The notes under the pieces are model-generated. The model made no database searches. It had not been told where the DNA came from and worked only from the letters and a program-made list of their open reading frames with translations. 38,810 nucleotides of DNA from Escherichia phage CICC 80001. The stretch lies in sequence record NC_027387.1. One strand, given 5' to 3'. Each line of letters opens with the position of its first letter. Within the stretch, counting starts at the first letter, position 1. Positions 1 to 38,810 of the stretch are shown here, in pieces. The translations under genes were made by a program, and so were the position numbers.

Positions 1-1254
1 CGTGAAGCTGACCGTTCCAAATCTGAGGCCAATCGTGCTAAAGGTTATGCTGATAGTATGATAGAAAGTGTTGAGACAGCCAAAGGTCACGCCGACCGTT
101 CCAATAAGGAAGCTAATCGTGCTCGTGATGAGGCTGACCGTGCTGCTGGAGAAGTCACTAAGGCCGCTGCACATGTTGTCACCGCTGAGGAACATGCTGA
201 CCGGGCTGACACTGAGGCTAACCGTGCGAAGAGTGAAGCTGACCGCGCGAAGATTGAGGCCGATAAGTTGGGTAACACGAACGCACTTGCTGGGACCATT
301 GACAGAATTGAGGATAATGATGTCCACTTCAAGGGTAAAATAGGCGCGCGCTCTTTGAATCTACATAATGATGCAAAAGGTGAGGGTACACAGCCAGTTG
401 ACCAAGTGTGGAACCAATGGCGCGCACAGGACTCTAAGGTTACTGCATGGGAACAGTGGATTCGGGCTGGAAGTAAGCGCATGGACTACTATGTTTTCAC
501 TAGTACGGACCCGGAAACTTGGCCTGAAGGTCGCTCCAATAGTAAAGGTAATCATACATTTTATGGGGACGTTCTATTTGCTGGTGGTAACGTGGAGATG
601 CACGGCAACCTTTATGTTAATGCAGTCGATTCTAAAAATACCGTTGCCCTTACAAATGTGGGTGCTAGCTTTAGGGCAAAAACACAAGGTGGCGGATGGA
701 GCCAGTGGACAGGAAGTCAATCTCCAGACGTGCAGCATGACATTGAAGGGCAGGGTGATACAAGCTATCTCCTTGAGCGAGCTACAATTTGGGGCAAAGA
801 ACACCTGTACGGTAAATGCTTGTACAACAATGGTACTGGTGCAAACTTCTTTATCCGTCACTACCTTCGCAATGCTTACTTTGATGTGTGTTCGGATGGT
901 TCCCTTAAAAGCTCTACGGGGTGGTACATTCCATCAGATGGTAACTTATTCATCAAGAAGTATGACTCGTACATTGATACTTGGGTCAACAGACGCTTGG
1001 GAGAACATGCCTACACTAAAAGTGAAGTGAACAGCCTAATTAGTAGTAACAAACAAGGGGCGAATAGTGTCTATTGGGGTCCGTCGCGATCCGTTGCAAG
1101 GAAATACTATAGGTCGCAAGAAATCCTAGCTGGGGGTGGCGAGGCTATGACTGGCATGGTGTTTGATGAACAAAACATAGTGAGTGGTGTGCGTTTCTGT
1201 GCTCTGTGGATAACCTTCCACGATGGTACAAAGCGTATCGTTGCATCACAATAA
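1..1254 (+). CDS. 17: Tail fibre protein gp17, C-terminal part (5' end runs off the window start; continues from the N-terminal part at 38238..38810 if the genome is circularly permuted)
   Basis: Frame-1 ORF open from nt 1; EADR/EANR coiled-coil repeats then a globular tip; architecture parallels T7 gp17 (EADKL..NxLAGxIDxxDxxxVxxKG) but the distal domain is diverged; followed by the holin gene as in T7. Confidence 0.85.
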   Translation, partial: READRSKSEANRAKGYADSMIESVETAKGHADRSNKEANRARDEADRAAGEVTKAAAHVVTAEEHADRADTEANRAKSEADRAKIEADKLGNTNALAGTIDRIEDNDVHFKGKIGARSLNLHNDAKGEGTQPVDQVWNQWRAQDSKVTAWEQWIRAGSKRMDYYVFTSTDPETWPEGRSNSKGNHTFYGDVLFAGGNVEMHGNLYVNAVDSKNTVALTNVGASFRAKTQGGGWSQWTGSQSPDVQHDIEGQGDTSYLLERATIWGKEHLYGKCLYNNGTGANFFIRHYLRNAYFDVCSDGSLKSSTGWYIPSDGNLFIKKYDSYIDTWVNRRLGEHAYTKSEVNSLISSNKQGANSVYWGPSRSVARKYYRSQEILAGGGEAMTGMVFDEQNIVSGVRFCALWITFHDGTKRIVASQ

Positions 1255-1267
1255 AGGAGACAATAAA

Positions 1268-1597
1268 ATGCGTAAGTTCTACAACTGGAAGTACAGCATT
1301 ACTTATGCTTATGGACAACCAACGTATGACGTGATTGACAAAGAAGGTAACGACTGGTATCGCCTGATGTGTGAACTTGAAGTTCGCCCTGAGAAGTGGG
1401 TCGTTGGGGTTAACCCCAACGGCTCAGTCTCTTGGTGGTCTGATGGTTCCGTAGATGGTACATATGCGCCGCCTGAAGGTGGCATGGTGATTGTTTGTGA
1501 AGAGTTCCTACCTGATTATGGACAACGCTGGGTGGACTCTGAGGACCGCTGGGAGTTGATTTCAGAAGCGACTAAAGCACCTAAGGAGGGTAGTTAA
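1268..1597 (+). CDS. Hypothetical protein (110 aa) between tail fibre and holin; possible tail-fibre accessory or assembly protein
   Basis: ATG at 1268 preceded by AAGGAG; stop directly abuts holin start (TAAATG at 1595-1600); no counterpart at this position in T7 as I recall it. Confidence 0.6.
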   Translation: MRKFYNWKYSITYAYGQPTYDVIDKEGNDWYRLMCELEVRPEKWVVGVNPNGSVSWWSDGSVDGTYAPPEGGMVIVCEEFLPDYGQRWVDSEDRWELISEATKAPKEGS

Positions 1598-2170: not shown

Positions 2171-2614
2171 ATGCTGGAATTTTTACGTAAGCTGGTCCCT
2201 TGGGTTCTCGCTGGGATGCTATTCGGATGGGGATGGCAACTTGGGGCTGACTCAATGGACGCTAAATGGAAACAGGAGGTACAGAATGAGTACGTTAAGA
2301 GAGTTGAGGCTACAGCGAGCACTCAAAGAGCACTCAATGAAATATCGGCTAAGTATCAAGAAGACCTTGCCGCGTTGGAAGGGAGCACTGATAGGATTAT
2401 TACTGATTTGCGTAGCGACAATAAGCGGCTGCGCGTCAGAGTCAAAACTACCGGAACCTCCGATGATAAGTGTGGATTCGAGCCTGATGGTCGAGCCGAA
2501 CTTGACGAGCGAGATGCTAAAAGTATTCTCGCAGTGACCAAAAGGGGTGACGCGTGGATTCGCGCTCTACAGGACACTATACGCGAACTACAGCATAAGC
2601 AGGAGGTTAAGTAA
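2171..2614 (+). CDS. 18.5: Inner-membrane spanin gp18.5 (Rz-like)
   Basis: 147 aa [22 protein letters not shown]..., matches T7 gp18.5. Confidence 0.9.
2286..2537 (+). CDS. 18.7: Outer-membrane spanin gp18.7 (Rz1-like), embedded in gene 18.5 in another frame
   Basis: [15 protein letters not shown]... with lipobox-like [11 protein letters not shown]; matches T7 gp18.7; listed ORF 2241..2537 trimmed to the conserved Met. Confidence 0.8.
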   Translation: MSTLRELRLQRALKEHSMKYRLSIKKTLPRWKGALIGLLLICVATISGCASESKLPEPPMISVDSSLMVEPNLTSEMLKVFSQ

Positions 2615-4386
2615 TGAGTAAAGGTGTATCCGCTCAGTCCAATCGTAATGCGCTCGTTGTGGTGCAACTAAAGGGTGACTTCGTGGCGTTCCTGTTCGTC
2701 TTATGGAAGGCGTTAAACCTACCAGTACCTACTAAGTGTCAGATTGATATGGCTAAGGTATTGGCGAATGGGGATAACAAGAAGTTCATCCTACAGGCTT
2801 TCCGTGGTATCGGTAAGTCATTCATCACTTGTGCGTTCGTTGTGTGGTCATTATGGAGAGACCCTCAGTTGAAGATACTCATCGTATCAGCCTCTAAGGA
2901 ACGTGCAGACGCTAACTCCATCTTCATCAAGAACATCATTGACCTACTGCCGTTTCTCAGTGAGTTGAAGCCGAGACCCGGACAGCGTGACTCTGTGATT
3001 AGCTTTGACGTTGGTCCTGCTAGTCCTGACCACTCTCCTAGTGTGAAGTCAGTAGGTATCACTGGTCAGTTAACTGGTAGCCGTGCTGATATTATCATTG
3101 CGGATGACGTTGAGATTCCGTCTAACAGTGCAACTATGGGTGCCCGTGAAAAGCTATGGACTCTCGTTCAGGAGTTCGCTGCGTTGCTTAAACCACTGCC
3201 TACTTCTCGTGTCATCTATCTGGGTACACCTCAAACTGAGATGACTCTCTATAAGGAACTTGAAGATAACCGTGGGTACTCCACTATCATCTGGCCTGCT
3301 CTGTATCCAAGGACTCGCGAGGAAAACCTCTACTACTCTCAGCGTCTGGCACCAATGCTCCGTGCTGAGTACGAGGAGAATCCTGAGGCGCTCGCTGGGA
3401 CTCCTACGGACCCTGTGCGCTTCGACCGTGATGACCTGCGTGAGCGTGAGTTGGAATACGGTAAGGCTGGCTTCACGTTACAGTTCATGCTTAACCCGAA
3501 CCTGAGTGATGCCGAGAAGTACCCTCTGAGGCTCCGTGACGCTATCGTAGCGGCCTTAGACTTAGAGAAGGCCCCAATGCATTACCAGTGGCTTCCGAAC
3601 CGTCAGAACATCATTGAGGACCTTCCTAACGTGGGCCTTAAGGGTGACGACCTGCATACATACCATGAGTGCTCAAATAACTCTGGTCAGTATCAACAGA
3701 AGATTCTGGTCATTGACCCAAGTGGTCGTGGTAAGGACGAAACAGGGTACGCTGTACTGTACACCCTCAATGGTTACATCTACCTAATGGAAGCTGGTGG
3801 TTTCCGTGATGGCTACTCCGATAAGACCCTTGAGTTGCTCGCTAAGAAAGCTAAGCAATGGGGAGTCCAGACGGTTGTCTACGAGAGTAACTTCGGTGAC
3901 GGTATGTTTGGTAAGGTGTTCAGTCCTATCCTTCTTAAACACCACAACTGTGCTATGGAAGAGATTCGTGCTCGTGGTATGAAGGAGATGCGTATTTGTG
4001 ATACCCTTGAGCCAGTCATGCAGACTCACCGCCTTGTCATTCGAGATGAGGTCATTAGGGCCGACTACCAGTCCGCTCGCGATATAGACGGTAAGCATGA
4101 CGTTAAATATTCACTGTTCTACCAGATGACCCGTATCACTCGTGAGAAAGGTGCTCTGGCACACGATGACCGATTGGATGCCCTTGCGTTAGGCATTGAG
4201 TATCTCCGTGAGTCCATGCAACTGGATTCCGTTAAGGTAGAGGGTGAAGTGCTTGCTGACTTCCTTGAGGAGCACATGATGCGTCCTACAGTAGCTGCTA
4301 CGCATATCATTGAGATGACTGTGGGAGGAGTTGATGTGTACTCTGAGGACGATGAGGGTTACGGTACATCTTTCATTGAGTGGTGA
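2614..4386 (+). CDS. 19: Terminase large subunit / DNA maturation protein gp19
   Basis: 590 aa, near-identical to T7 gp19 over most of its length. Confidence 0.97.
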
Positions 4387-4423
4387 TTTACGAGGCCAAG
4401 GAAGGCCGCTTTAAGGAGGTAAT

Positions 4424-4867
4424 ATGATAAACAAGAAGAAGTATGTTGTCGATAAGGATACTGGCTGCTGGAACTTTAAGGGCTGTAAGACTAAGACTGG
4501 TTATGGTCGTATTCGTGTAAATGGAGTCCATTGGATGGCCCACAGGTATTCCCTGAGTTGTCATCTAGGCAGACCGATAGCTGACGGAATGGTTGTGATG
4601 CACCTGTGTGATAACCCCTCATGTGTTAACCCTGAGCACCTTAAGGAAGGGACTCAGAAGGAAAACATAGAGGACTGCATCTCAAAAGGTCGAGCAACTA
4701 AGGCCACAGGCAAACGCGATGCGTCGAAGAGAGACCCTAGCGAGGAACGTAAGGCTATAGTGATTCGTAGATACCATAAAGGCTGGACCGCAACGTCCAT
4801 AGCGAGATACCATAAGCTCTCTGTGGCGTGGGTCAAGAGGGCCATTGAGGAGTACCTAAGTGATTGA
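4424..4867 (+). CDS. HNH homing-endonuclease-like protein
   Basis: 147 aa; GCWNFKGC...GYGRIRVNGVHWMAHRYSL...MHLCDNPSCVNPEHL core (His-Asn-His with Cys pairs) plus basic C-terminal tail; AAGGAGG RBS; same architecture as T7 gp2.8/gp7.7-type proteins but at a different locus. Confidence 0.85.
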   Translation: MINKKKYVVDKDTGCWNFKGCKTKTGYGRIRVNGVHWMAHRYSLSCHLGRPIADGMVVMHLCDNPSCVNPEHLKEGTQKENIEDCISKGRATKATGKRDASKRDPSEERKAIVIRRYHKGWTATSIARYHKLSVAWVKRAIEEYLSD

Positions 4868-4918
4868 TATTTGAAATTAGTGATACAGGTCTAAGTATAT
4901 GATTACAGACCGTTATTC

Positions 4919-4941
4919 TAATTCGACTCACTATAGGGAGA
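4919..4941 (+). promoter_or_regulatory. T7-type promoter (phiOR-equivalent)
   Basis: TAATTCGACTCACTATAGGGAGA. Confidence 0.85.
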
Positions 4942-5031
4942 AGCCTACCTAAAGATTACTATAAGACTTAAAGTGTCCTATAAGGTAGGTTGTTATTATT
5001 GTTAATACAACCAACATAAAGGAGGAGACTC

Positions 5032-5181
5032 ATGTTCCGCTTATTGTTGAACCTACTGCGGCATAGAGTCACCTATCGCTTTCTTGTGGTACTTTGTGCT
5101 GCCCTTGGGTACGCATCTCTTAATGGAGACCTCAGTTCACTGGAGTCTGCCGTTTGCTCTTTACTCACTTGTAGTGATTAA
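5032..5181 (+). CDS. 19.5: gp19.5 small hydrophobic protein
   Basis: 49 aa MFRLLLNLLRHRVTYRFLVVLCAALGYASL..., matches T7 gp19.5; GGAGGAG RBS; below the 60-aa cutoff of the ORF track. Confidence 0.85.
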   Translation: MFRLLLNLLRHRVTYRFLVVLCAALGYASLNGDLSSLESAVCSLLTCSD

Positions 5182-5422
5182 GGTCTTCCTGACCGACTGA
5201 GGGCTCACCGAGGGATTCAGCGGTATGATTACATCACACCACTTCATCCCTATAGAGTCAAGTCCTAAGGTATACCCATAAAGAGCCTCTAATGGTCTAT
5301 CCGTAAGGTCTATACCTAAAGATAGGCCATCCTATCAGTGGAACCTAAAGAGGGTCTTAGAGAGGGCCTGAGGAGTTCCTAGAGGGTCCTTTAAAATATA
5401 CCATAAAAATCTGAGTGACTAT

Positions 5423-5569
5423 CTCACAGTTTAAGAACCCAAAGTTCCCCCCATAGGGGTCCCTAAATCCCAGCCAATCACCTAAAGTCAACCGAAGGTT
5501 GACCTTGAGGGTTCCCTGGGGTTGGGGATGACCCTTTGGGTGTTACCTTGAGTGTCTCTCTGTGCCCCT
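5423..5569. repeat. Terminal repeat homologue (single copy in this permuted sequence); physical genome ends expected here
   Basis: Begins TCTCACAGT as the T7 left end does, ends ...GTGTCTCTCTGTGCCCCT; preceded by ...ATCTGAGTGACTATC as at the T7 right junction; boundaries approximate. Confidence 0.55.
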
Positions 5570-6928: not shown

Positions 6929-6978
6929 TAGGCTCAAGGTCGCTCAATATGAGTGGCCTTTATGATTATCACTTTAAC
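6929..6978 (+). promoter_or_regulatory. RNase III-type hairpin (extra copy of the R0.5-like site)
   Basis: GGCTCAAGGTCGCTCAATATGAGTGGCCTTTATGATTATCACTTTAAC, paralogous to the site at 7246..7300. Confidence 0.5.
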
Positions 6979-6997
6979 ATGTAATAGGACTAACACC

Positions 6998-7198
6998 ATG
7001 AGTAAACTTCTGGCAACATCTAAAATCAAAGGTCAATGCACTGTAACACTGCGAGAGTATGATCACGGGGCAATGGGTAGCACCTACGTTGTGCGATACG
7101 GTAAACAAGTCACCCAATGGGTGAACGAGGTTTTGGCACAAGAAGAATACCAAGCCTGCGTGATACACCAAGCAACATGTGCAGGCTGGAATGACTGA
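6998..7198 (+). CDS. Hypothetical early protein (66 aa), no T7 counterpart at this position
   Basis: ATG at 6998 with AGGA 8 nt upstream; ORF MSKLLATSKIKGQCTVTLREYDHG...; between genes 0.4 and 0.5, flanked by two RNase III-like hairpins; listed ORF 6953..7198 trimmed to the Met outside the hairpin. Confidence 0.55.
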   Translation: MSKLLATSKIKGQCTVTLREYDHGAMGSTYVVRYGKQVTQWVNEVLAQEEYQACVIHQATCAGWND

Positions 7199-7245
7199 TG
7201 GCGCTATTTGTACGCACTGGATACTAACCTTCGAGTCCACCCAGT

Positions 7246-8754: not shown

Positions 8755-11406
8755 ATGAACACGATTAACATCGCTAAGAACGACTTCTCTGACATCGAAC
8801 TGGCTGCTATCCCGTTCAACACTCTGGCTGACCATTACGGTGAGCGTTTGGCTCGCGAACAGTTGGCCCTTGAGCATGAGTCTTACGAGATGGGTGAAGC
8901 ACGTTTCCGCAAGATGTTTGAGCGTCAACTTAAAGCTGGTGAGGTTGCGGATAACGCTGCCGCTAAGCCCCTCATTACTACCCTTCTCCCTAAGATGATT
9001 GCACGCATCAACGACTGGTTTGAGGTAGTGAAAGCTAAGCGCGGCAAACGCCCGACAGCCTTCCAGTTCCTGCAAGAAATCAAGCCGGAAGCTGTAGCGT
9101 ACATCACCATTAAGACCACTCTTGCTTGCCTAACCAGTGCGGACAATACAACCGTTCAGGCTGTAGCAAGCGCAATCGGTCGGGCCATTGAGGATGAGTC
9201 GCGCTTCGGTCGCATCCGTGACCTTGAAGCTAAGCACTTCAAGAAAAACGTTGAGGAACAACTAAACAAGCGTGTAGGGCACGTCTATAGGAAAGCATTC
9301 ATGCAGGTTGTCGAAGCTGACATGCTCTCTAAGGGTCTAATGGGCGGCGAGGCGTGGTCTTCGTGGCATAAGGAAGACTCCATTCACGTAGGGGTTCGCT
9401 GCATTGAGATGCTCATTGAGTCCACCGGAATGGTTAGCTTGCACCGCCAAAATGCTGGCGTAGTAGGCCAAGACTCTGAGACTATCGAACTCGCACCGGA
9501 ATACGCTGAGGCTATCGCAACACGGGCTGGGGCACTGGCTGGCATTTCCCCAATGTTCCAGCCTTGCGTAGTCCCTCCTAAGCCTTGGACTGGCATTACT
9601 GGGGGTGGCTATTGGGCTAACGGTCGCCGTCCTCTGGCGCTGGTGCGCACTCACAGTAAGAAAGCACTGATGCGCTACGAAGATGTTTACATGCCTGAGG
9701 TGTACAAGGCGATTAACATTGCGCAAAACACCGCATGGAAAATCAACAAGAAAGTCCTAGCGGTCGCCAACGTAATCACCAAGTGGAAGCACTGCCCTGT
9801 AGAGGACATCCCAGCGATTGAACGTGAAGAACTCCCAATGAAACCGGAAGACATCGACACGAATCCTGAGGCACTCACCGCGTGGAAACGTGCTGCTGCC
9901 GCTGTGTACCGCAAGGACAAGGCTCGCAAGTCTCGCCGTATCAGCCTTGAGTTCATGCTTGAGCAAGCCAACAAGTTCGCTAACCATAAGTCCATCTGGT
10001 TCCCTTACAACATGGACTGGCGCGGTCGTGTTTACGCTGTGTCAATGTTCAACCCGCAAGGTAACGACATGACCAAGGGTCTGCTGACACTGGCTAAAGG
10101 AAAACCAATCGGTAAAGAAGGTTACTACTGGCTGAAAATCCACGGTGCAAACTGCGCTGGAGTCGATAAGGTTCCGTTCCCTGAGCGCATCAAGTTCATT
10201 GAGGACAACCACGAGAACATCATGGCTTGCGCTAAGTCTCCTCTGGAGAACACTTGGTGGGCTGAGCAAGATTCTCCGTTCTGCTTCCTCGCGTTCTGCT
10301 TTGAGTACGCTGGGGTACAGCACCACGGTCTGAGCTACAACTGCTCACTGCCACTGGCGTTCGATGGGTCTTGCTCCGGTATTCAGCACTTCTCAGCGAT
10401 GCTCCGCGATGAGGTGGGTGGTCTTGCTGTTAACCTGCTGCCTAGTGAAACCGTTCAGGACATCTACGGGATTGTCGCTAAGAAAGTCAACGTGATTCTG
10501 CAAGAGGATGTAATCAACGGGACCGACAACGAAGTAGTTACCGTGACCGATGAGAACACTGGTGAAATCTCTGAGAAAGTCAAGCTGGGTACTAAGGCAC
10601 TGGCTGGTCAATGGCTGGCTTACGGTGTAACTCGTAGCGTGACTAAGCGTTCAGTCATGACGCTGGCCTATGGTTCCAAAGAGTTCGGATTCCGTCAGCA
10701 AGTCCTTGAGGACACCATACAGCCCGCTATTGATTCCGGTAAAGGTCTGATGTTTACTCAACCAAATCAGGCTGCTGGTTACATGGCTAAACTGATTTGG
10801 GAAGCTGTTAGCGTCACAGTGGTGGCTGCGGTTGAAGCAATGAACTGGCTCAAGTCTGCTGCTAAGCTGCTGGCTGCTGAGGTCAAAGATAAGAAGACTG
10901 GAGAGATTCTTCGCAAGCGTTGCGCTGTACACTGGGTAACTCCTGATGGCTTCCCTGTATGGCAGGAATACAAGAAGCCCATCCAGACTCGCTTGAACCT
11001 GATTTTCCTCGGTCAGTTCCGTCTACAGCCTACCATTAACACAAACAAGGATAGCGAGATTGACGCGCACAAGCAGGAGTCCGGCATAGCTCCTAACTTT
11101 GTGCATAGCCAAGATGGTAGCCACCTGCGTAAGACTGTAGTGTGGGCACACGAGAAGTACGGAATCGAATCGTTTGCATTGATTCACGACTCCTTCGGGA
11201 CAATTCCTGCTGACGCTGCCAACCTGTTCAAAGCTGTGCGCGAAACTATGGTTGACACCTATGAGTCTTGTGATGTACTGGCTGACTTCTACGACCAGTT
11301 CGCTGACCAGTTGCATGAGTCTCAATTGGACAAAATGCCAGCACTTCCGGCTAAAGGTAACTTGAATCTCCAAGACATCCTTAAGTCAGACTTCGCGTTC
11401 GCGTAA
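8755..11406 (+). CDS. 1: T7-type single-subunit DNA-dependent RNA polymerase
   Basis: 883 aa MNTINIAKNDFSDIELAAIPFNTLADHYGERLAREQLALEHESYEMGEARFRKMFERQLKAGEVADNAAAKPLITTLLPKMIARINDWFE... ending ...FAFA; essentially T7 RNAP. Confidence 0.99.
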   Translation: MNTINIAKNDFSDIELAAIPFNTLADHYGERLAREQLALEHESYEMGEARFRKMFERQLKAGEVADNAAAKPLITTLLPKMIARINDWFEVVKAKRGKRPTAFQFLQEIKPEAVAYITIKTTLACLTSADNTTVQAVASAIGRAIEDESRFGRIRDLEAKHFKKNVEEQLNKRVGHVYRKAFMQVVEADMLSKGLMGGEAWSSWHKEDSIHVGVRCIEMLIESTGMVSLHRQNAGVVGQDSETIELAPEYAEAIATRAGALAGISPMFQPCVVPPKPWTGITGGGYWANGRRPLALVRTHSKKALMRYEDVYMPEVYKAINIAQNTAWKINKKVLAVANVITKWKHCPVEDIPAIEREELPMKPEDIDTNPEALTAWKRAAAAVYRKDKARKSRRISLEFMLEQANKFANHKSIWFPYNMDWRGRVYAVSMFNPQGNDMTKGLLTLAKGKPIGKEGYYWLKIHGANCAGVDKVPFPERIKFIEDNHENIMACAKSPLENTWWAEQDSPFCFLAFCFEYAGVQHHGLSYNCSLPLAFDGSCSGIQHFSAMLRDEVGGLAVNLLPSETVQDIYGIVAKKVNVILQEDVINGTDNEVVTVTDENTGEISEKVKLGTKALAGQWLAYGVTRSVTKRSVMTLAYGSKEFGFRQQVLEDTIQPAIDSGKGLMFTQPNQAAGYMAKLIWEAVSVTVVAAVEAMNWLKSAAKLLAAEVKDKKTGEILRKRCAVHWVTPDGFPVWQEYKKPIQTRLNLIFLGQFRLQPTINTNKDSEIDAHKQESGIAPNFVHSQDGSHLRKTVVWAHEKYGIESFALIHDSFGTIPADAANLFKAVRETMVDTYESCDVLADFYDQFADQLHESQLDKMPALPAKGNLNLQDILKSDFAFA

Positions 11407-11414
11407 CGTCAAAT

Positions 11415-11437
11415 TAATACGACTCACTATAGAGGGA
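11415..11437 (+). promoter_or_regulatory. T7-type promoter phi1.1A
   Basis: TAATACGACTCACTATAGAGGGA. Confidence 0.85.
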
Positions 11438-11480
11438 CAAACTCAAGGTCATTCGCAAGAGTGGCCTTTATGATTGACCT
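11438..11480 (+). promoter_or_regulatory. RNase III processing site (R1.1-equivalent)
   Basis: CAAACTCAAGGTCATTCGCAAGAGTGGCCTTTATGATTGACC hairpin. Confidence 0.55.
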
Positions 11481-11502
11481 TCTTCCGGTTAATACGACTC
11501 AC
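11480..11502 (+). promoter_or_regulatory. T7-type promoter phi1.1B
   Basis: TAATACGACTCACTATAGGAGAA. Confidence 0.85.
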
Positions 11503-11590
11503 TATAGGAGAACCTTAAGGTTTAACTTTAAGACCCTTAAGTGTTAATTAGAGATTTAAATTAAAGAATTACTAAGAGAGGACTTTAAGT
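11503..11590 (+). promoter_or_regulatory. AT-rich region downstream of phi1.1A/B, corresponding to the T7 primary origin of replication
   Basis: AT-rich TTAATTAGAGATTTAAATTAAAGAATTACTAAG following the paired promoters, as at the T7 origin. Confidence 0.45.
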
Positions 11591-14215: not shown

Positions 14216-14914
14216 ATGGCTAAGAAGATTTTCACCTCTGCGCTGGGTACTGCTGAACCTTACGCTTACATCGGTAAGCCGGACTACGGTAACGAAGAGC
14301 GTGGCTTTGGGAACCCTCGTGGTGTATACAAAGTTGACCTGACTATTCCCAACAAAGACCCGCGCTGCCAACGTATGGTCGATGAAATCGTGAAGTGTCA
14401 CGAAGAGGCTTATGCTGCTGCCGTTGAGGAATATGAAGCGAACCCGCCTGCTGTAGCTCGTGGTAAGAAACCGCTGAAACCGTATGAAGGCGACATGCCG
14501 TTCTTCGATAACGGTGACGGCACGACTACCTTTAAGTTCAAATGCTACGCGTCTTTCCAAGACAAGAAGACCAAAGAGACCAAGCACATCAATCTGGTTG
14601 TGGTTGACTCCAAAGGTAAGAAGATTGAAGACGTTCCGATTATCGGTGGTGGCTCTAAACTGAAAGTCAAATACTCGCTGGTCCCGTACAAGTGGAACAC
14701 TGCTGTAGGCGCGAGCGTTAAGCTGCAACTGGAATCCGTAATGCTGGTCGAACTGGCTACCTTTGGTGGCGGTGAAGACGATTGGGCTGACGAAGTTGAA
14801 GAGAACGGCTATGTTGCCTCTGGTTCTGCCAAAGCGAGCAAACCACGCGACGAAGAAAGCTGGGACGAAGACGACGAAGAGTCCTACGAAGAAGACGAAG
14901 ACGGAGACTTCTAA
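14216..14914 (+). CDS. 2.5: gp2.5 single-stranded DNA-binding protein
   Basis: 232 aa with acidic C-terminal tail ending DEDGDF; near-identical to T7 gp2.5. Confidence 0.97.
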   Translation: MAKKIFTSALGTAEPYAYIGKPDYGNEERGFGNPRGVYKVDLTIPNKDPRCQRMVDEIVKCHEEAYAAAVEEYEANPPAVARGKKPLKPYEGDMPFFDNGDGTTTFKFKCYASFQDKKTKETKHINLVVVDSKGKKIEDVPIIGGGSKLKVKYSLVPYKWNTAVGASVKLQLESVMLVELATFGGGEDDWADEVEENGYVASGSAKASKPRDEESWDEDDEESYEEDEDGDF

Positions 14915-15370
14915 GTGGCTGGCGCATACGCTGCGCGTGGTATCCGAAAGGTCGGGACATTCCGTTCCGGCCTAGAAGATAAGGTCTCTAAGCAGCTAGA
15001 GGGTAAGGGTATTAAGTTCGACTATGAACTGTGGAAAATCCCTTACGTTGTCCCTGCGAGCAACCATGTGTATACTCCAGACTTCCTGCTGCCTAACGGA
15101 ATCTTCATTGAAACCAAAGGTTTATGGGAGAGTGACGACCGAAAGAAACACTTATTGATTCGCGAACAGTTTCCCGAACTGGACATCCGTCTGGTGTTCT
15201 CAAGCTCGCGCACCAAGCTGTACAAAGGGTCTCCGACCAGTTACGGTGAGTGGTGTGAGAAGCACGGTATCCTGTTTGCTGACAAATTAATTCCTGTGGA
15301 ATGGCTCAAAGAACCCAAAAAGGAGGTGCCATTTGACAAGCTGAAACAATCGAAGGGAGGTAAGAAATAA
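14915..15370 (+). CDS. 3: gp3 endonuclease I (Holliday junction resolvase)
   Basis: 151 aa, GTG start directly after the gp2.5 stop; GIRKVG...YTPDFLLPNGIFIETKGLWESDDRKKHLL matches T7 gp3. Confidence 0.93.
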   Translation: MAGAYAARGIRKVGTFRSGLEDKVSKQLEGKGIKFDYELWKIPYVVPASNHVYTPDFLLPNGIFIETKGLWESDDRKKHLLIREQFPELDIRLVFSSSRTKLYKGSPTSYGEWCEKHGILFADKLIPVEWLKEPKKEVPFDKLKQSKGGKK

Positions 15371-15825: not shown

Positions 15826-15826
15826 T

Positions 15827-15849
15827 TAATTGAACTCACTAAAGGGAGA
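15827..15849 (+). promoter_or_regulatory. T7-type promoter (phi3.8-equivalent), here directly upstream of gene 4
   Basis: TAATTGAACTCACTAAAGGGAGA followed by GACCACAACGGTTTCCC hairpin. Confidence 0.85.
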
Positions 15850-15881: not shown

Positions 15882-17655
<1,774 letters not shown>

Positions 17656-18684: not shown

Positions 18685-20841
18685 ATGATCGTTTCTGACA
18701 TCGAAGCTAACGCCCTCTTAGAGAGCGTCACTAAGTTCCACTGCGGGGTTATCTACGACTACTCCACCGCTGAGTACGTAAGCTACCGTCCGAGTGACTT
18801 CGGTGCGTATCTGGATGCGCTGGAAGCCGAGGTTGCACGAGGCGGTCTTATTGTGTTCCACAACGGTCACAAGTATGACGTTCCCGCATTGACCAAACTG
18901 GCTAAGTTACAGCTTAACCGTGAGTTCCATCTACCCCGCGAGAATTGTATCGACACCCTTGTGTTGTCACGTTTGATTCACTCCAACCTGAAAGACACCG
19001 ATATGGGTCTGCTGCGTTCCGGTAAGTTGCCCGGTAAACGCTTTGGGTCTCACGCTTTGGAGGCGTGGGGTTATCGCTTAGGCGAAATGAAAGGTGAATA
19101 CAAGGATGACTTTAAGCGTATGCTTGAAGAGCAGGGTGAAGAATACGTTGATGGAATGGAGTGGTGGAACTTCAACGAAGAGATGATGGACTATAACGTT
19201 CAGGATGTTGTGGTCACTAAGGCTCTCCTTGAGAAGCTACTCTCTGATAAACATTACTTCCCTCCTGAGATTGACTTTACGGACGTAGGATACACTACGT
19301 TCTGGTCAGAATCCCTTGAGGCCGTTGACGTTGAACATCGCGCTGCATGGCTACTCGCTAAGCAAGAGCGCAATGGATTCCCGTTTGACACGAAAGCAAT
19401 CGAAGAGTTGTACGTAGAGTTAGCTGCTCGCCGCTCTGAGTTGCTCCGTAAACTTACCGAAACGTTCGGCTCATGGTATCAACCTAAGGGTGGCACCGAA
19501 ATGTTCTGCCATCCGAGGACTGGTAAGCCATTGCCTAAATACCCTCGCATTAAGACACCTAAAGTTGGTGGCATATTTAAGAAGCCTAAGAACAAGGCAC
19601 AGCGAGAAGGCCGTGAGCCTTGCGAACTTGACACCCGCGAGTACGTTGCTGGTGCCACATATACTCCGGTAGAGCACGTAGTGTTTAACCCTTCTTCCCG
19701 TGACCACATTCAGAAGAAACTTCAAGAGGCTGGATGGGTCCCGACTAAGTACACCGATAAAGGTGCACCTGTGGTGGACGATGAGGTCCTAGAGGTAGTA
19801 AAAGTAGATGACCCTGAGAAGCAAGCCGCTATCGACCTTATTAAAGAATACTTGATGATTCAGAAGAGAATCGGACAGTCTGCTGAGGGAGACAAGGCAT
19901 GGCTTCGTTACGTTGCTGAGGATGGTAAAATTCATGGTTCTGTTAACCCCAATGGTGCTGTTACTGGGCGCGCTACTCACGCTTTCCCTAACCTCGCACA
20001 GATACCCGGTGTCCGCTCTCCTTATGGTGATCGGTGCCGCGCTGCTTTTGGCGCTGAACATCACCTAGATGGACTCACAGGTAAGCCTTGGGTTCAGGCT
20101 GGTATAGACGCCTCAGGTCTGGAGTTGCGCTGCTTGGCACACTTCATGGCTCGCTTTGACAACGGTGAGTATGCTCACGAGATTCTCAATGGTGACATTC
20201 ACTGGAAGAATGCAATTGCTACTGACTTAGCACCAAACGTTGCCCGTGATAAACACAATAAGGAACACGACCTAATGCGAGATAACGCCAAGACGTTTAT
20301 CTATGGGTTCCTCTATGGTGCTGGAGATGAGAAGACTGGGCAGATTGTCGGTGCTGGTAAAGAGCGCGGTAAGGAACTCAAGAAGAAATTCCTTGAGAAC
20401 ACCCCTGCGATTGCGGCACTCCGAGAGTCTATCCAACAGACACTTGTTGAGTCCTCTCAGTGGGTAGCTGGTGAACAGCAAGTCAAGTGGAAACGTCGCT
20501 GGATTAAAGGTCTGGATGGTCGTAAGGTACACGTCCGTAGTCCTCACGCTGCCCTGAATACCCTACTGCAATCCGCTGGTGCGCTTATCTGCAAACTGTG
20601 GATTATCAAGACCGAAGAGATGCTCGTAGAGAAAGGCTTGAAGCATGGCTGGGATGGGGACTTTGCGTACATGGCTTGGGTACACGATGAAATCCAAGTC
20701 GGTTGCCGTACCGAAGAGATTGCTCAGTTGGTCATTGAGACCGCACAAGAAGCAATGCGCTGGGTTGGAGACCACTGGAACTTCCGGTGTCTTCTGGATA
20801 CCGAAGGTAAGATGGGTCCTAACTGGGCAGTATGTCACTAA
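18685..20841 (+). CDS. 5: gp5 DNA polymerase (family A, with 3'-5' exonuclease domain)
   Basis: 718 aa, near-identical to T7 gp5 except a roughly 14-aa insertion encoded around 20224..20280. Confidence 0.97.
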
Positions 20842-20860: not shown

Positions 20861-21160
20861 ATGGCTATGACAAAGAAATTTAAAGTGTCCTTCGACGTTA
20901 CCGCTAAGATGGTATCTGACGTTCAGGTAATCTTAGAGAAAGATATGCTGCACTTATGTAAGCAGGTTGGCTCCGGTGCGATTGTCCCCAATGGTAAACA
21001 GAAGGAAATGATTGTCCAGTTCCTGACACATGGCATGGAAGGCTTGATGACGTTCGTGGTACGTACAGCATTCCGTGAGGCAATCAAGGACATGCACGAA
21101 GAGTATGCCGATAAGGACTCCTTCAAACTCTCTCCTGCAACAGTACGGGAGGTGTTCTGA
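20861..21160 (+). CDS. 5.5: gp5.5 H-NS-binding protein
   Basis: 99 aa MAMTKKFKVSFDVTAKMVSDVQVILEKDMLHLCKQ..., near-identical to T7 gp5.5. Confidence 0.93.
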   Translation: MAMTKKFKVSFDVTAKMVSDVQVILEKDMLHLCKQVGSGAIVPNGKQKEMIVQFLTHGMEGLMTFVVRTAFREAIKDMHEEYADKDSFKLSPATVREVF

Positions 21161-23544: not shown

Positions 23545-23844
23545 ATGGGTAAGAAAATTAAGAAGGCCGTGAAGAAAGTCACTAAGTCCGTTAAGAAAGT
23601 CGTTAAGGAAGTGGCCCGTCCGGTTAAACAGGTTGCAGGTGGTCTGACTGGTGGTGCTGGTGAAGCACAGGTCGTGGAAGTACCACAAGCTGCCACTCCT
23701 GCTGCACAGATTGTTGACGTGCCTGAGAAAGAGGTTTCCACTGAGGACGAAGCTCAGACCGAAAGCGGACGTAAGAAAGCTCGTGCTGGCGGTAAGAAGT
23801 CCTTGAGTGTAGCCCGTAGCTCCGGTGGCGGCATCAACATTTAA
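23545..23844 (+). CDS. 7.3: gp7.3 tail-associated adsorption protein
   Basis: 99 aa MGKKIKKAVKKVTKSVKKVVKE..., matches T7 gp7.3. Confidence 0.93.
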   Translation: MGKKIKKAVKKVTKSVKKVVKEVARPVKQVAGGLTGGAGEAQVVEVPQAATPAAQIVDVPEKEVSTEDEAQTESGRKKARAGGKKSLSVARSSGGGINI

Positions 23845-23858
23845 ACAGGAGGTGACAC

Positions 23859-25469
23859 ATGGCTGAGAAGCGTACAGGTCTAGCCGAGGAAGGCGCAAAG
23901 TCCGTTTATGACCGATTGAAGAACGACCGCGCCCCTTATGAGACTCGTGCTCAAAACTGTGCTCAGTACACCATTCCGTCCCTCTTCCCTAAGGATTCCG
24001 ATAACTCATCCACAGACTACACGACTCCGTGGCAAGCCGTGGGTGCTCGCGGTCTCAATAACTTAGCCTCTAAGCTCATGTTGGCTCTCTTCCCGATGCA
24101 AACGTGGATGAAGTTAACCATCTCTGAGTATGAGGCAAAACAGTTACTGAACGACCCCGATGGACTCGCGAAGGTCGATGAGGGCCTCTCGATGGTAGAG
24201 CGTATCATCATGAACTACATTGAGTCGAACAGCTACCGAGTGACTCTCTTTGAGGCTCTCAAGCAGCTAGTCGTAGCTGGTAACGTGTTGTTGTACCTGC
24301 CGGAACCAGAAGGGTCAAACTACAATCCCATGAAGCTGTACCGATTGTCTTCTTATGTGGTCCAACGAGACGCATTCGGCAACGTTCTGCAAATGGTGAC
24401 TCGTGACCAGATAGCTTTTGGTGCTCTCCCTGAGGACATCCGCAAGGCTGTAGAAGGTCAAGGCGGCGAGAAGAAAGCCGATGAGACCATCGACGTGTAC
24501 ACTCACATCTATCTGGACGAGGACACAGGCGAATACCTCCGATACGAAGAGGTCGAGGGTATGGAGGTACAAGGCTCCGATGGGTCTTACCCTAAAGAGG
24601 CTTGCCCGTACATCCCGATTCGGATGGTTCGACTGGACGGCGAATCCTATGGTCGTTCGTACATTGAGGAATACTTAGGTGACTTACGGTCCCTTGAGAA
24701 TCTCCAAGAGGCTATCGTTAAGATGTCAATGATTAGCTCTAAGGTTATCGGCTTAGTGAATCCTGCTGGTATCACCCAGCCACGCCGACTGACCAAAGCT
24801 CAGACTGGTGACTTCGTTACTGGTCGTCCAGAAGACATCTCGTTCCTCCAACTGGAGAAGCAAGCAGACTTTACCGTAGCCAAGGCCGTCAGTGACGCTA
24901 TTGAGGCTCGCCTTTCGTTTGCCTTTATGTTGAACTCTGCGGTTCAGCGCACAGGTGAACGTGTGACCGCCGAAGAGATTCGGTACGTAGCTTCTGAACT
25001 TGAAGATACTTTAGGTGGTGTCTACTCCATCCTTTCTCAAGAATTGCAATTGCCTCTGGTACGAGTGCTCTTGAAGCAACTACAAGCCACGCAACAGATT
25101 CCTGAGTTACCTAAGGAAGCCGTAGAGCCAACCATTAGTACAGGCTTGGAAGCAATTGGTCGAGGACAAGACCTTGATAAGCTGGAGCGTTGCGTAACTG
25201 CATGGGCTGCACTGGCTCCTATGCGCGATGACCCTGACATCAACCTTGCGATGATTAAGTTGCGCATTGCGAACGCTATCGGTATTGACACTTCTGGTAT
25301 ACTTCTTACCGAAGAACAGAAGCAACAGAAGATGGCTCAACAGGCTATGCAAATGGGTATGGATAATGGTGCTGCTGCGCTTGGTCAAGGTATGGCTGCA
25401 CAGGCTACAGCTTCGCCTGAGGCTATAGCTGCTGCCGCTGATTCCGTAGGTTTACAGCCGGGCATTTAA
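23859..25469 (+). CDS. 8: gp8 portal (head-tail connector) protein
   Basis: 536 aa, near-identical to T7 gp8. Confidence 0.97.
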   Translation: MAEKRTGLAEEGAKSVYDRLKNDRAPYETRAQNCAQYTIPSLFPKDSDNSSTDYTTPWQAVGARGLNNLASKLMLALFPMQTWMKLTISEYEAKQLLNDPDGLAKVDEGLSMVERIIMNYIESNSYRVTLFEALKQLVVAGNVLLYLPEPEGSNYNPMKLYRLSSYVVQRDAFGNVLQMVTRDQIAFGALPEDIRKAVEGQGGEKKADETIDVYTHIYLDEDTGEYLRYEEVEGMEVQGSDGSYPKEACPYIPIRMVRLDGESYGRSYIEEYLGDLRSLENLQEAIVKMSMISSKVIGLVNPAGITQPRRLTKAQTGDFVTGRPEDISFLQLEKQADFTVAKAVSDAIEARLSFAFMLNSAVQRTGERVTAEEIRYVASELEDTLGGVYSILSQELQLPLVRVLLKQLQATQQIPELPKEAVEPTISTGLEAIGRGQDLDKLERCVTAWAALAPMRDDPDINLAMIKLRIANAIGIDTSGILLTEEQKQQKMAQQAMQMGMDNGAAALGQGMAAQATASPEAIAAAADSVGLQPGI

Positions 25470-38237: not shown

Positions 38238-38810
38238 ATGGCTAACGTAATTAAAACCGTTTTGACTTACCAGTTAGATGGCTCCACTCGTGATTTCAAT
38301 ATCCCGTTTGAGTATCTAGCCCGTAAGTTCGTAGTGGTAACTCTTATTGGTGTAGACCGCCGTGTTCTCACGTTAAATACAGATTATCGCTTTGCTACTC
38401 GTACTACTATCTCACTGACTAAGGCTTGGGGGCCAGCGGATGGCTATACTACCATCGAGTTACGTCGAGTAACCTCCACGACCGACCGCTTGGTTGACTT
38501 TACGGACGGCTCAATCCTCCGTGCGTATGACCTTAACGTTGCTCAGATTCAAACGATGCACGTAGCGGAGGAGGCTCGCGACCTAACTGCGGATACCATC
38601 GGTGTCAACAGTGATGGTCACTTGGATGCCCGTGGTCGTAAGATTGTGAACCTTGCGTTCGCTACCAGTGACTATGATGCTGTCCCTCTGAAACAGATTA
38701 AGGACCGTGAGTCCTCTGTGTGGAATGCTGTTACCAAAGCTGATGAACATGCTGACCGCTCTACTCGTGAAGCTAACCGCTCTCGTGATGAGGCTGACCG
38801 TGCTAAGCGT
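38238..38810 (+). CDS. 17: Tail fibre protein gp17, N-terminal part (3' end runs off the window; 191 complete codons)
   Basis: MANVIKTVLTYQLDGSTRDFNIPFEYLARKFVVVTLIGVDRRVLTLNTDYRFATRTT... matches the T7 gp17 tail-attachment domain, then diverges into EADR/EANR repeats. Confidence 0.95.
   Translation, partial: MANVIKTVLTYQLDGSTRDFNIPFEYLARKFVVVTLIGVDRRVLTLNTDYRFATRTTISLTKAWGPADGYTTIELRRVTSTTDRLVDFTDGSILRAYDLNVAQIQTMHVAEEARDLTADTIGVNSDGHLDARGRKIVNLAFATSDYDAVPLKQIKDRESSVWNAVTKADEHADRSTREANRSRDEADRAKR

Follow-up and report, generated by a model that had tools for sequence, protein, structure and literature searches.

A predicted HNH endonuclease gene is part of one of two alleles of the spacer between gene 19 and phiOR in T7-like phages

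Results

Organization of the gene 19 to gene 19.5 region

The window, by which we mean the whole stretch of DNA that was analysed (38,810 bp), is a complete T7-like phage (Teseptimavirus) genome that is circularly permuted and opened within the tail-fibre gene 17. The distal part of gene 17 (positions 58..1254) is followed by an extra small ORF and genes 17.5, 18 and 18.5, and the early region (0.3, 0.7, gene 1 and so on) comes after gene 19.5. The nearest database genomes over 25 kb were those of PHB20 and IME390 (94.6% identity), with 3A_8767, vB_YpYeO9, 13a and T7 at 92.6 to 93.5%. The locus of interest is bounded on the left by gene 19, encoding the terminase large subunit (2614..4386, plus strand; 98.5% identity to T7 gp19), and on the right by gene 19.5 (5032..5181, plus strand). 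Between them, on the plus strand at 4391..5008, is a block that contains a hairpin, an HNH endonuclease ORF, a variant of the phiOR promoter and a diverged leader.

The ORF (4424..4867, plus strand) begins with ATG, ends with TGA and encodes 147 amino acids, and the protein motifs quoted in a preliminary description of this DNA were found exactly as given. That description had put the distance between the gene 19 stop codon and phiOR at about 530 bp, compared to about 100 bp in T7; we measured 549 bp to the promoter +1 in the window and 99 bp in T7 (gene 19 stop at 39130, phiOR +1 at 39229).

In an alignment with T7, the gene 19 stop (TGATTTA) is followed by the omission of about 29 bp of the T7 spacer, and next come the hairpin, the ribosome-binding site and the ORF. 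The hairpin GGCC-AAGGAA-GGCC (GGCCAAGGAAGGCC; 4394..4407, plus strand), identified by alignments and RNA folding and followed by CTTTAAG, is homologous to T7 AGACCACGGATGGTCAGTTCTTTAAG and closer still to KP32 AGGCCACGGAAGGCCACTTTGAG. It is likewise located 5′ of the HNH ORF in phages 13a, Vi06 and L105. A strong Shine-Dalgarno sequence, AAGGAGG, is present at 4413..4419 (plus strand). A scan of 4200..5300 found neither terminator-like nor plus-strand promoter-like sites between gene 19 and the ORF; as nothing stops transcription ahead of it and it lacks a separate promoter, the HNH gene is expressed late, by read-through from gene 19.

Downstream of the ORF, alignment with T7 resumes about 20 nt past the stop codon, within a short spacer (4868..4918, plus strand), and from about 4887 the sequence GGTCTAAGT... 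pairs with the T7 spacer just 5′ of phiOR. The phiOR-type T7 RNA polymerase promoter TAATTCGACTCACTATAGGGAGA (4919..4941, plus strand; +1 at 4936) has T in place of A at -13 and is located where phiOR is annotated in 13a; in all, the plus strand of the window has 16 T7-promoter cores, this one included. The leader transcribed from it (4942..5008, plus strand) matches the T7 leader at about 70% identity, is missing a segment of 48 bp from it and carries a 19-nt imperfect tandem repeat (4947..4984). The region from phiOR to about 22 nt 5′ of the gene 19.5 ATG is homologous to T7 yet just about 70% identical, and in a blastn comparison with T7 the interval 4391..5009 was unmatched. The window and 13a have in common the hairpin, CTTTAAG and AAGGAGGTAATATG upstream of the ORF and the phiOR sequence TAATTCGACTCACTATAGGGAG downstream. 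Alignment of the gene 19 to 19.5 region, which the preliminary description had proposed as a way of defining the insertion junctions, resolved the left side as described above, whereas the right junction could not be placed to the base. As judged from these alignments, the locus is a diverged alternative allele of the whole spacer, phiOR and leader included, rather than an empty site of otherwise unchanged sequence into which a gene was simply inserted.

Two other features of the locus were considered and set aside. An antisense T7-promoter-like 14-mer within the ORF (4754..4767, minus strand) was attributed to chance, being conserved in neither JeanTinguely nor 13a, and a group I intron context was rejected, the ORF being intergenic and 4200..5300 giving no Rfam match at E≤1.

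Domain structure and conservation of the HNH protein

The protein matches Pfam HNH_3 (PF13392) over residues 39-81 (35.3 bits; cut-off 24.8) and HTH_23 over residues 104-145 (26.6 bits; cut-off 24.6), with a sub-threshold match to the Pfam homing-endonuclease zinc-binding loop. It also matches PHROG 6254, ‘HNH endonuclease’, at 3e-60. Because a sequence search of the PDB yielded no match even at E≤1, assignment of the fold required a predicted structure. The AlphaFold model (mean pLDDT 89.7) has an N-terminal nuclease domain of the ββα-metal fold (residues 1-88, encoded by 4424..4687, plus strand), with strands at 57-60 and 73-76 and a helix at 78-87; a basic, flexible linker (residues 89-104; 4688..4735, plus strand), the only stretch in which pLDDT falls to 56-71; and a C-terminal three-helix HTH DNA-binding domain (residues 105-147; 4736..4864, plus strand) with helices at 105-118, 123-130 and 134-146. 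The best PDB match of the model was I-HmuI (1u3e; Foldseek probability 1.00), followed by I-PpoI and the related Smad MH1 fold, and its C-terminal part matched HTH domains of the Fis, NarL and resolvase type.

In an alignment of 78 homologues, residues C15, G28, H60, C62, C67, H72, L73 and N81 were invariant. C15, C62, C67 and H72 probably form a Cys3-His zinc site; H60 and N81 are presumably the general-base histidine and the metal-binding asparagine, respectively, by analogy with I-HmuI. Among the phages that carry the gene, dN/dS was 0.09 for the whole ORF and 0.06 for the nuclease domain, with dS up to 0.48. The ORF was intact, with no truncation, in every Teseptimavirus carrier examined. 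The invariance of the catalytic residues suggests that nuclease activity itself is under selection. Taken together, the domain matches and the modelled fold support the view of this protein as a nuclease of the HNH (His-Me finger) type, assembled from modules as homing endonucleases are.

The resemblance to I-HmuI of phage SPO1 lies in the predicted arrangement, in which the His-Me finger nuclease is N-terminal and the HTH DNA-binding module C-terminal. The two differ in that identity is 28% over 87 columns, that I-HmuI is intron-encoded whereas the window ORF is intergenic, and that the window protein is shorter and has the Cys3-His zinc site. I-HmuI is a nicking enzyme, and by analogy the window enzyme may make a one-strand nick rather than a double-strand break.

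T7 endonuclease genes that are absent from the window

The T7 genes 2.8, 3.8, 5.3 and 7.7, said in the preliminary description to be missing, are indeed cleanly absent from the window in both tblastn and blastn searches. The description had grouped all four as HNH-type, which is incorrect for gp5.3: its Pfam match is PDDEXK_5, that of a PD-(D/E)XK-type protein. With the T7 proteins as tblastn queries, gp3.8 and gp5.3 had no match in the window, and gp2.8 and gp7.7 matched nothing other than the ORF at 4424..4867, at 38-45% identity. The T7 segments without a counterpart in the window (blastn) were 9861-10277, 11214-11585, 16469-16833 and 19844-20239. The direct juxtapositions of flanking genes that had been reported at these sites proved exact to the base, namely the gene 2.5 stop at 14914 and gene 3 GTG at 14915, the phi3.8-type promoter at 15826..15848 immediately 5′ of gene 4, the gene 5 stop at 20841 and gene 5.5 ATG at 20861, and the gene 7.3 stop at 23844 and gene 8 ATG at 23859.

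The ORF at 4424..4867 is therefore the sole HNH gene of the window, and the 19.4 position is the only one of the endonuclease-gene sites of the T7 group that is filled. Phage 13a, on the other hand, has 3.8, 7.7, an endonuclease gene in a gene 5 intron and 19.4, and lacks 2.8 and 5.3; the combination of occupied sites varies between phages of the group. The nearest T7 paralogues of the window protein are gp7.7 (45%) and gp2.8 (38%), which belong to the same Pfam family, have the Cys-rich zf-His_Me_endon signature and are encoded by intergenic, free-standing, dispensable genes; gp7.7 also has the layout of a nuclease domain followed by a C-terminal HTH-like part. The similarity to both is confined to the nuclease domain, and their genes occupy other sites, which are empty in the window.

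Orthologues of the ORF in related phages

By sequence similarity and position, the ORF is the orthologue of gene 19.4 of phage 13a (EU734174 / NC_011045), which is annotated in that record between gene 19 and phiOR. The gene 19.4 orthologues share with the window the location after the gene 19 stop and GGCC hairpin and before phiOR and 19.5, the same ribosome-binding site and the same linked phiOR leader. The 13a protein is 70.6% identical to the window protein over 99% of its length, but the identity is distributed unevenly (92% in the nuclease domain and 39% in the C-terminal part), which suggests a mosaic protein. The 13a/Vi06 subtype thus differs in its strongly diverged C-terminal DNA-binding part, and it has six extra residues. 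Most named orthologues are 91-99% identical to the window protein, and an ORF of Shigella phage ESh6 is 98.6% identical; no database record had an identical protein. A homologue with 67% identity is present at the same site in L105, a more distant metagenomic T7-like phage, where it is located 3′ of the hairpin as in the window.

The preliminary description had taken the position of the gene to be a new insertion site. This is not borne out: in about 30 Teseptimavirus records of GenBank/RefSeq, among them Vi06, JeanTinguely (Bas64), IME390, HZ2R8, HZP2, N30, 3A_8767, Yanou and vB_YpYeO9, the gene at this position is annotated as an “HNH endonuclease” or a “putative homing endonuclease”. The label in RefSeq is ‘HNH endonuclease’, that in the record of the BASEL phage JeanTinguely is ‘putative homing endonuclease’ and that in Vi06 is ‘7.7’. 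Of the records matching the 1.5 kb that surrounds the ORF, 28 covered it completely, and identity was 93-96% in more than 20. The gene is thus an ordinary, known feature, since it is already annotated at the same spot in about 30 related phages. A literature search on gene 19.4 or gp19.4, the HNH genes of Yep-phi and Berlin, and homing endonucleases of phage 13a found nothing relevant; the BASEL paper mentions homing endonucleases in general terms only.

Two alleles of the spacer

Comparison of phage genomes showed the locus to be dimorphic, the gene belonging to one of two forms, in which the 4391..5008 block stands in place of an almost invariant T7-type spacer of about 235 bp. Among Teseptimavirus records, the long allele is found in 30 and the T7-type allele in 148, although about 108 of the 148 are T7 itself; for natural isolates, the numbers are about 30 long-allele and about 40 non-T7 short-allele records. 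In IMG/VR, the HNH gene was present in 6 of 13 close loci. Eight HNH-less phages, whose gene 19 sequences differ by about 5%, show almost no variation in the T7-type promoter and the about 155 bp of leader that follow it. A 164-bp segment following the ORF was found in all of the HNH-carrying records and in no others among 50,697 phage records; because the long-allele leader was absent from every HNH-less phage in this set, a true empty site of the long allele was not seen.

The borders of the block were delimited by comparing seven carriers with seven non-carriers. In gene 19, none of 355 variable sites (over 1760 bp) was associated with HNH status at ≥0.8, up to the stop codon. On the right side, the association was 1.0 within the block until CCAACATAAAGGAGG and then fell to background, so that linkage is lost 22 nt 5′ of the gene 19.5 ATG; no SNP past the gene 19.5 ribosome-binding site tracks HNH status, and gene 19.5 itself is unlinked. 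Inheritance of the block is thus uncoupled from that of its flanks. Consistent with this, carriers and non-carriers are interleaved when ranked by genome-wide similarity to the window, and there are sympatric pairs of opposite status, namely vB_Yep_9/vB_Yep_15, ESh6/ESh1 and JeanTinguely/MeretOppenheim.

Identity among carriers was 93.9% in the block and 94.4 and 94.7% in the two flanks, and so divergence in the block was no lower than in the flanks, as recent spread would give. In addition, the seven carriers had no flanking SNPs in common relative to the seven non-carriers that would indicate a co-conversion gradient. Hence there is no sign of recent spread; the match in divergence with the flanks, the intact ORFs and the dN/dS of 0.09 point to an old, selected and functional resident in part of the population.

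Other HNH genes in the same spacer

In six Klebsiella KP32-like loci the spacer is 704 bp long, compared to 281 bp, and the extra DNA encodes a gp3.8-like HNH_3 protein. This protein lacks the Cys site and is barely related to the window protein (BLASTP E value 0.003); the insertion point of its gene is the stop codon of gene 19, with the downstream KP32 sequence unaltered. In the Yersinia phages Yep-phi, Berlin and the fPS phages, a homologue with 49-52% identity is located straight after the gene 19 stop, 5′ of any hairpin. Like the window gene, the Klebsiella and Yersinia genes are directly 3′ of the terminase gene, and their presence varies among close relatives. The gene 19-phiOR spacer is a repeated landing place; at least three HNH lineages have settled in it, each at a different exact point.

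Discussion

The product of the ORF is most likely, to judge from sequence comparison, a free-standing homing or competition endonuclease directed at the T7-type allele. The preliminary description had called it a homing endonuclease at a new insertion site, of which some parts stand (an HNH nuclease of modular build, presence or absence among phages more than 90% identical, and sharp block borders) and others do not (a new site and a simple insertion). We consider it likely that this is the known 19.4 nuclease, a gene of the long allele, and that in mixed infections it would cut the T7-type allele, with repair copying the interval 4391..5008. In such a process, the gene would be translated from late transcripts passing through gene 19, and in a cell that is also infected by a T7-type phage the enzyme would be anchored through its HTH domain near the spacer of the T7-type genome. 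The nuclease domain would then nick or cut the T7-type allele within or beside the spacer, and T7-type recombinational repair on the HNH-carrying template would copy the whole block. The spacer of a carrier is interrupted by the gene, and its leader has diverged to about 70% identity with the near-invariant T7-type one; being interrupted and diverged, the carrier’s own allele would escape. The near-invariant T7-type leader would be an attractive candidate target.

A more specific version of this interpretation holds that the enzyme targets the T7-type phiOR leader and that the two alleles form a balanced polymorphism, a cutter with a resistant site opposed to a sensitive site, with the nuclease serving as an inter-phage weapon. 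We regard this version as quite improbable. If it were true, the weapon would be aimed at an essential non-coding element beside a secondary origin and the packaging region, and the two spacer alleles, about 70% identical in genomes that are about 95% identical, would be kept as a balanced polymorphism. The enzyme might then also have a second role against host defence that does not depend on its nuclease, its gene being the only one of this endonuclease type left in the window.

The pattern of conservation could also arise if the gene were retained for a benefit to the phage rather than for homing, either as an interference weapon against T7-type genomes or as a nuclease-independent damper of host defence. 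The low dN/dS, the intact ORFs and the divergence equal to that of the flanks describe an old resident, purifying selection that stays strong at dS values of up to 0.48 fits this explanation equally well, and the long allele is common in natural isolates (about 30 records compared to about 40 non-T7 short-allele records). There is a precedent as well: in a 2025 preprint, catalytically dead T7 gp3.8 and the I-HmuI-like BASEL endonuclease bas24_0090 are reported to attenuate GAPS4, and deletion of 2.8, 3.8 and 7.7 is reported to matter (10.1101/2025.09.07.674715). The 19.4 product, encoded by the window’s only HNH gene, would be its sole such protein because 2.8, 3.8 and 7.7 have been lost. However, nothing ties the window protein to GAPS4, its resemblance being to gp2.8 and gp7.7 (38-45%), with no gp3.8 match by tblastn, and the invariant catalytic residues suggest selection on nuclease activity. 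Retention for phage benefit in place of homing thus seems to us possible but unlikely, and it is in any case compatible with homing.

Two further explanations fare worse. One is that the ORF is a decaying or non-catalytic remnant, either functionless or acting by DNA binding alone, for example as a regulator of phiOR. The HTH-encoding domain is directly 5′ of a promoter on a diverged leader, and the comparison of block and flank divergence among carriers does not support recent mobility, both of which would suit a remnant. Yet conservation within the protein is highest in the nuclease domain (dN/dS 0.06; 92% identity to 13a gp19.4 compared to 39% for the HTH part), the His-Me finger signature residues are all invariant and the Teseptimavirus carriers examined have no truncated copies, which makes decay very unlikely. 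The other is that the protein is a terminase accessory HNH protein of the HK97-like kind that contributes to DNA cutting in packaging, in which case a position beside the terminase gene would follow from that role. The gene does adjoin the terminase large subunit gene near the genome end and packaging region, as HNH nuclease genes of the HK97 gp74 type are found beside terminase genes. This explanation is largely refuted by the distribution of the gene, because it is absent from T7 and from 148 records with a 95-98% identical terminase that package normally; in contrast to the gp74 type, it is dispensable within its clade. The domain type also argues against it: the window protein is of another HNH subfamily, with a two-domain HNH_3 and HTH structure and a homing endonuclease as its best fold match. 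Moreover, unrelated HNH subfamilies occur in the same spacer at differing exact points, and the neighbouring gene encodes a T7-type terminase with a nuclease domain of its own (Pfam Terminase-T7_RNaseH-like). We therefore think a packaging role extremely improbable.

With the claim of a novel site corrected, the locus is one further copy of an already annotated, mobile-type nuclease gene, to which the present comparison makes small additions, namely that the phiOR region exists in two allelic forms and that the spacer is a hot spot. In Teseptimavirus, the gene and a particular version of the phiOR leader move together as a sharply bounded block, and the near-invariant T7-type leader provides a concrete candidate target for a cleavage assay. 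For the engineering of T7-like phages and for phylogenies based on the right end of their genomes, the interval 4391..5008 should be treated as a separately inherited unit.

Endonuclease genes in related phages

In KP32-like Klebsiella phages (loci L062, L065, L069, L087, L090, and L098), a gp3.8-like HNH_3 gene was found to be inserted at the stop codon of gene 19 (about 4752..5456). The HNH_3 ORF of L069 is shorter (123 aa compared to 144 aa) and may be a decaying copy. As a separate observation, an identical translation-initiation string, TAAGGAGGTAATATG, is located 5′ of these Klebsiella genes (L062 4755..4764) and of the unrelated HNH gene of the window (4412..4426).

In phage 13a, which carries an HNH gene at the same site as the window, gene 5 (L106 5617..8332) is annotated as two joined pieces with an endonuclease ORF inside, i.e., an intron-encoded endonuclease, whereas the window's gene 5 is uninterrupted. 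The T7 protein gp5.3 (T7 16483..16839, locus L005) had been counted among the HNH proteins in the preliminary description; however, its Pfam match is to PDDEXK_5 (PD-(D/E)XK endonuclease) rather than to any of the HNH families, which corrects this assignment.

Tail fiber and early regions

The distal two-thirds of tail fiber gene 17 (window 1..1254 plus 38658..38810) matched PHROG 4242 ("tail fiber protein") but gave no nucleotide match to T7, and at the protein level the identity to T7 was 39%, over a short stretch only. This distal part looks like an exchanged receptor-binding module. The ends of the window fall inside gene 17, showing that the assembly is circularly permuted.

Between gene 17 and the holin gene 17.5 is an additional ORF of 109 to 124 aa (1223..1597, with an ATG at 1268), which has no counterpart in T7 and no match in Pfam or PHROG. 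Its top database relatives (82%) come from Citrobacter and Klebsiella T7-like phages and are unannotated or "hypothetical", and some Teseptimaviruses have homologues of 47 to 64% identity. This ORF probably moves together with the distal tail fiber module, and it is perhaps a chaperone or receptor-binding accessory.

In the early region, an 81-aa ORF (6953..7198) that matched PHROG 6500 (unknown function) is located between genes 0.3 and 0.7, in a stretch of 266 bp (6977..7242) that is absent from T7.

The phiOR promoter and its leader

A T7-promoter-like core with two mismatches, CGAATCACTATAGC, is present in antisense orientation within the HNH ORF (4754..4767, minus strand); together with phiOR, this core makes up an inverted repeat of 13 nt. 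The core was rejected as a real promoter and is probably due to chance, because it is not conserved in the relatives JeanTinguely and 13a.

In the HNH-less Teseptimaviruses (L025-L037 and L002), phiOR and about 155 bp of leader (equivalent to T7 39212..39370) are nearly invariant despite a divergence of about 5% in the neighboring genes, which suggests that phiOR and its leader in these phages are a strongly constrained non-coding element that adjoins the right genome end.
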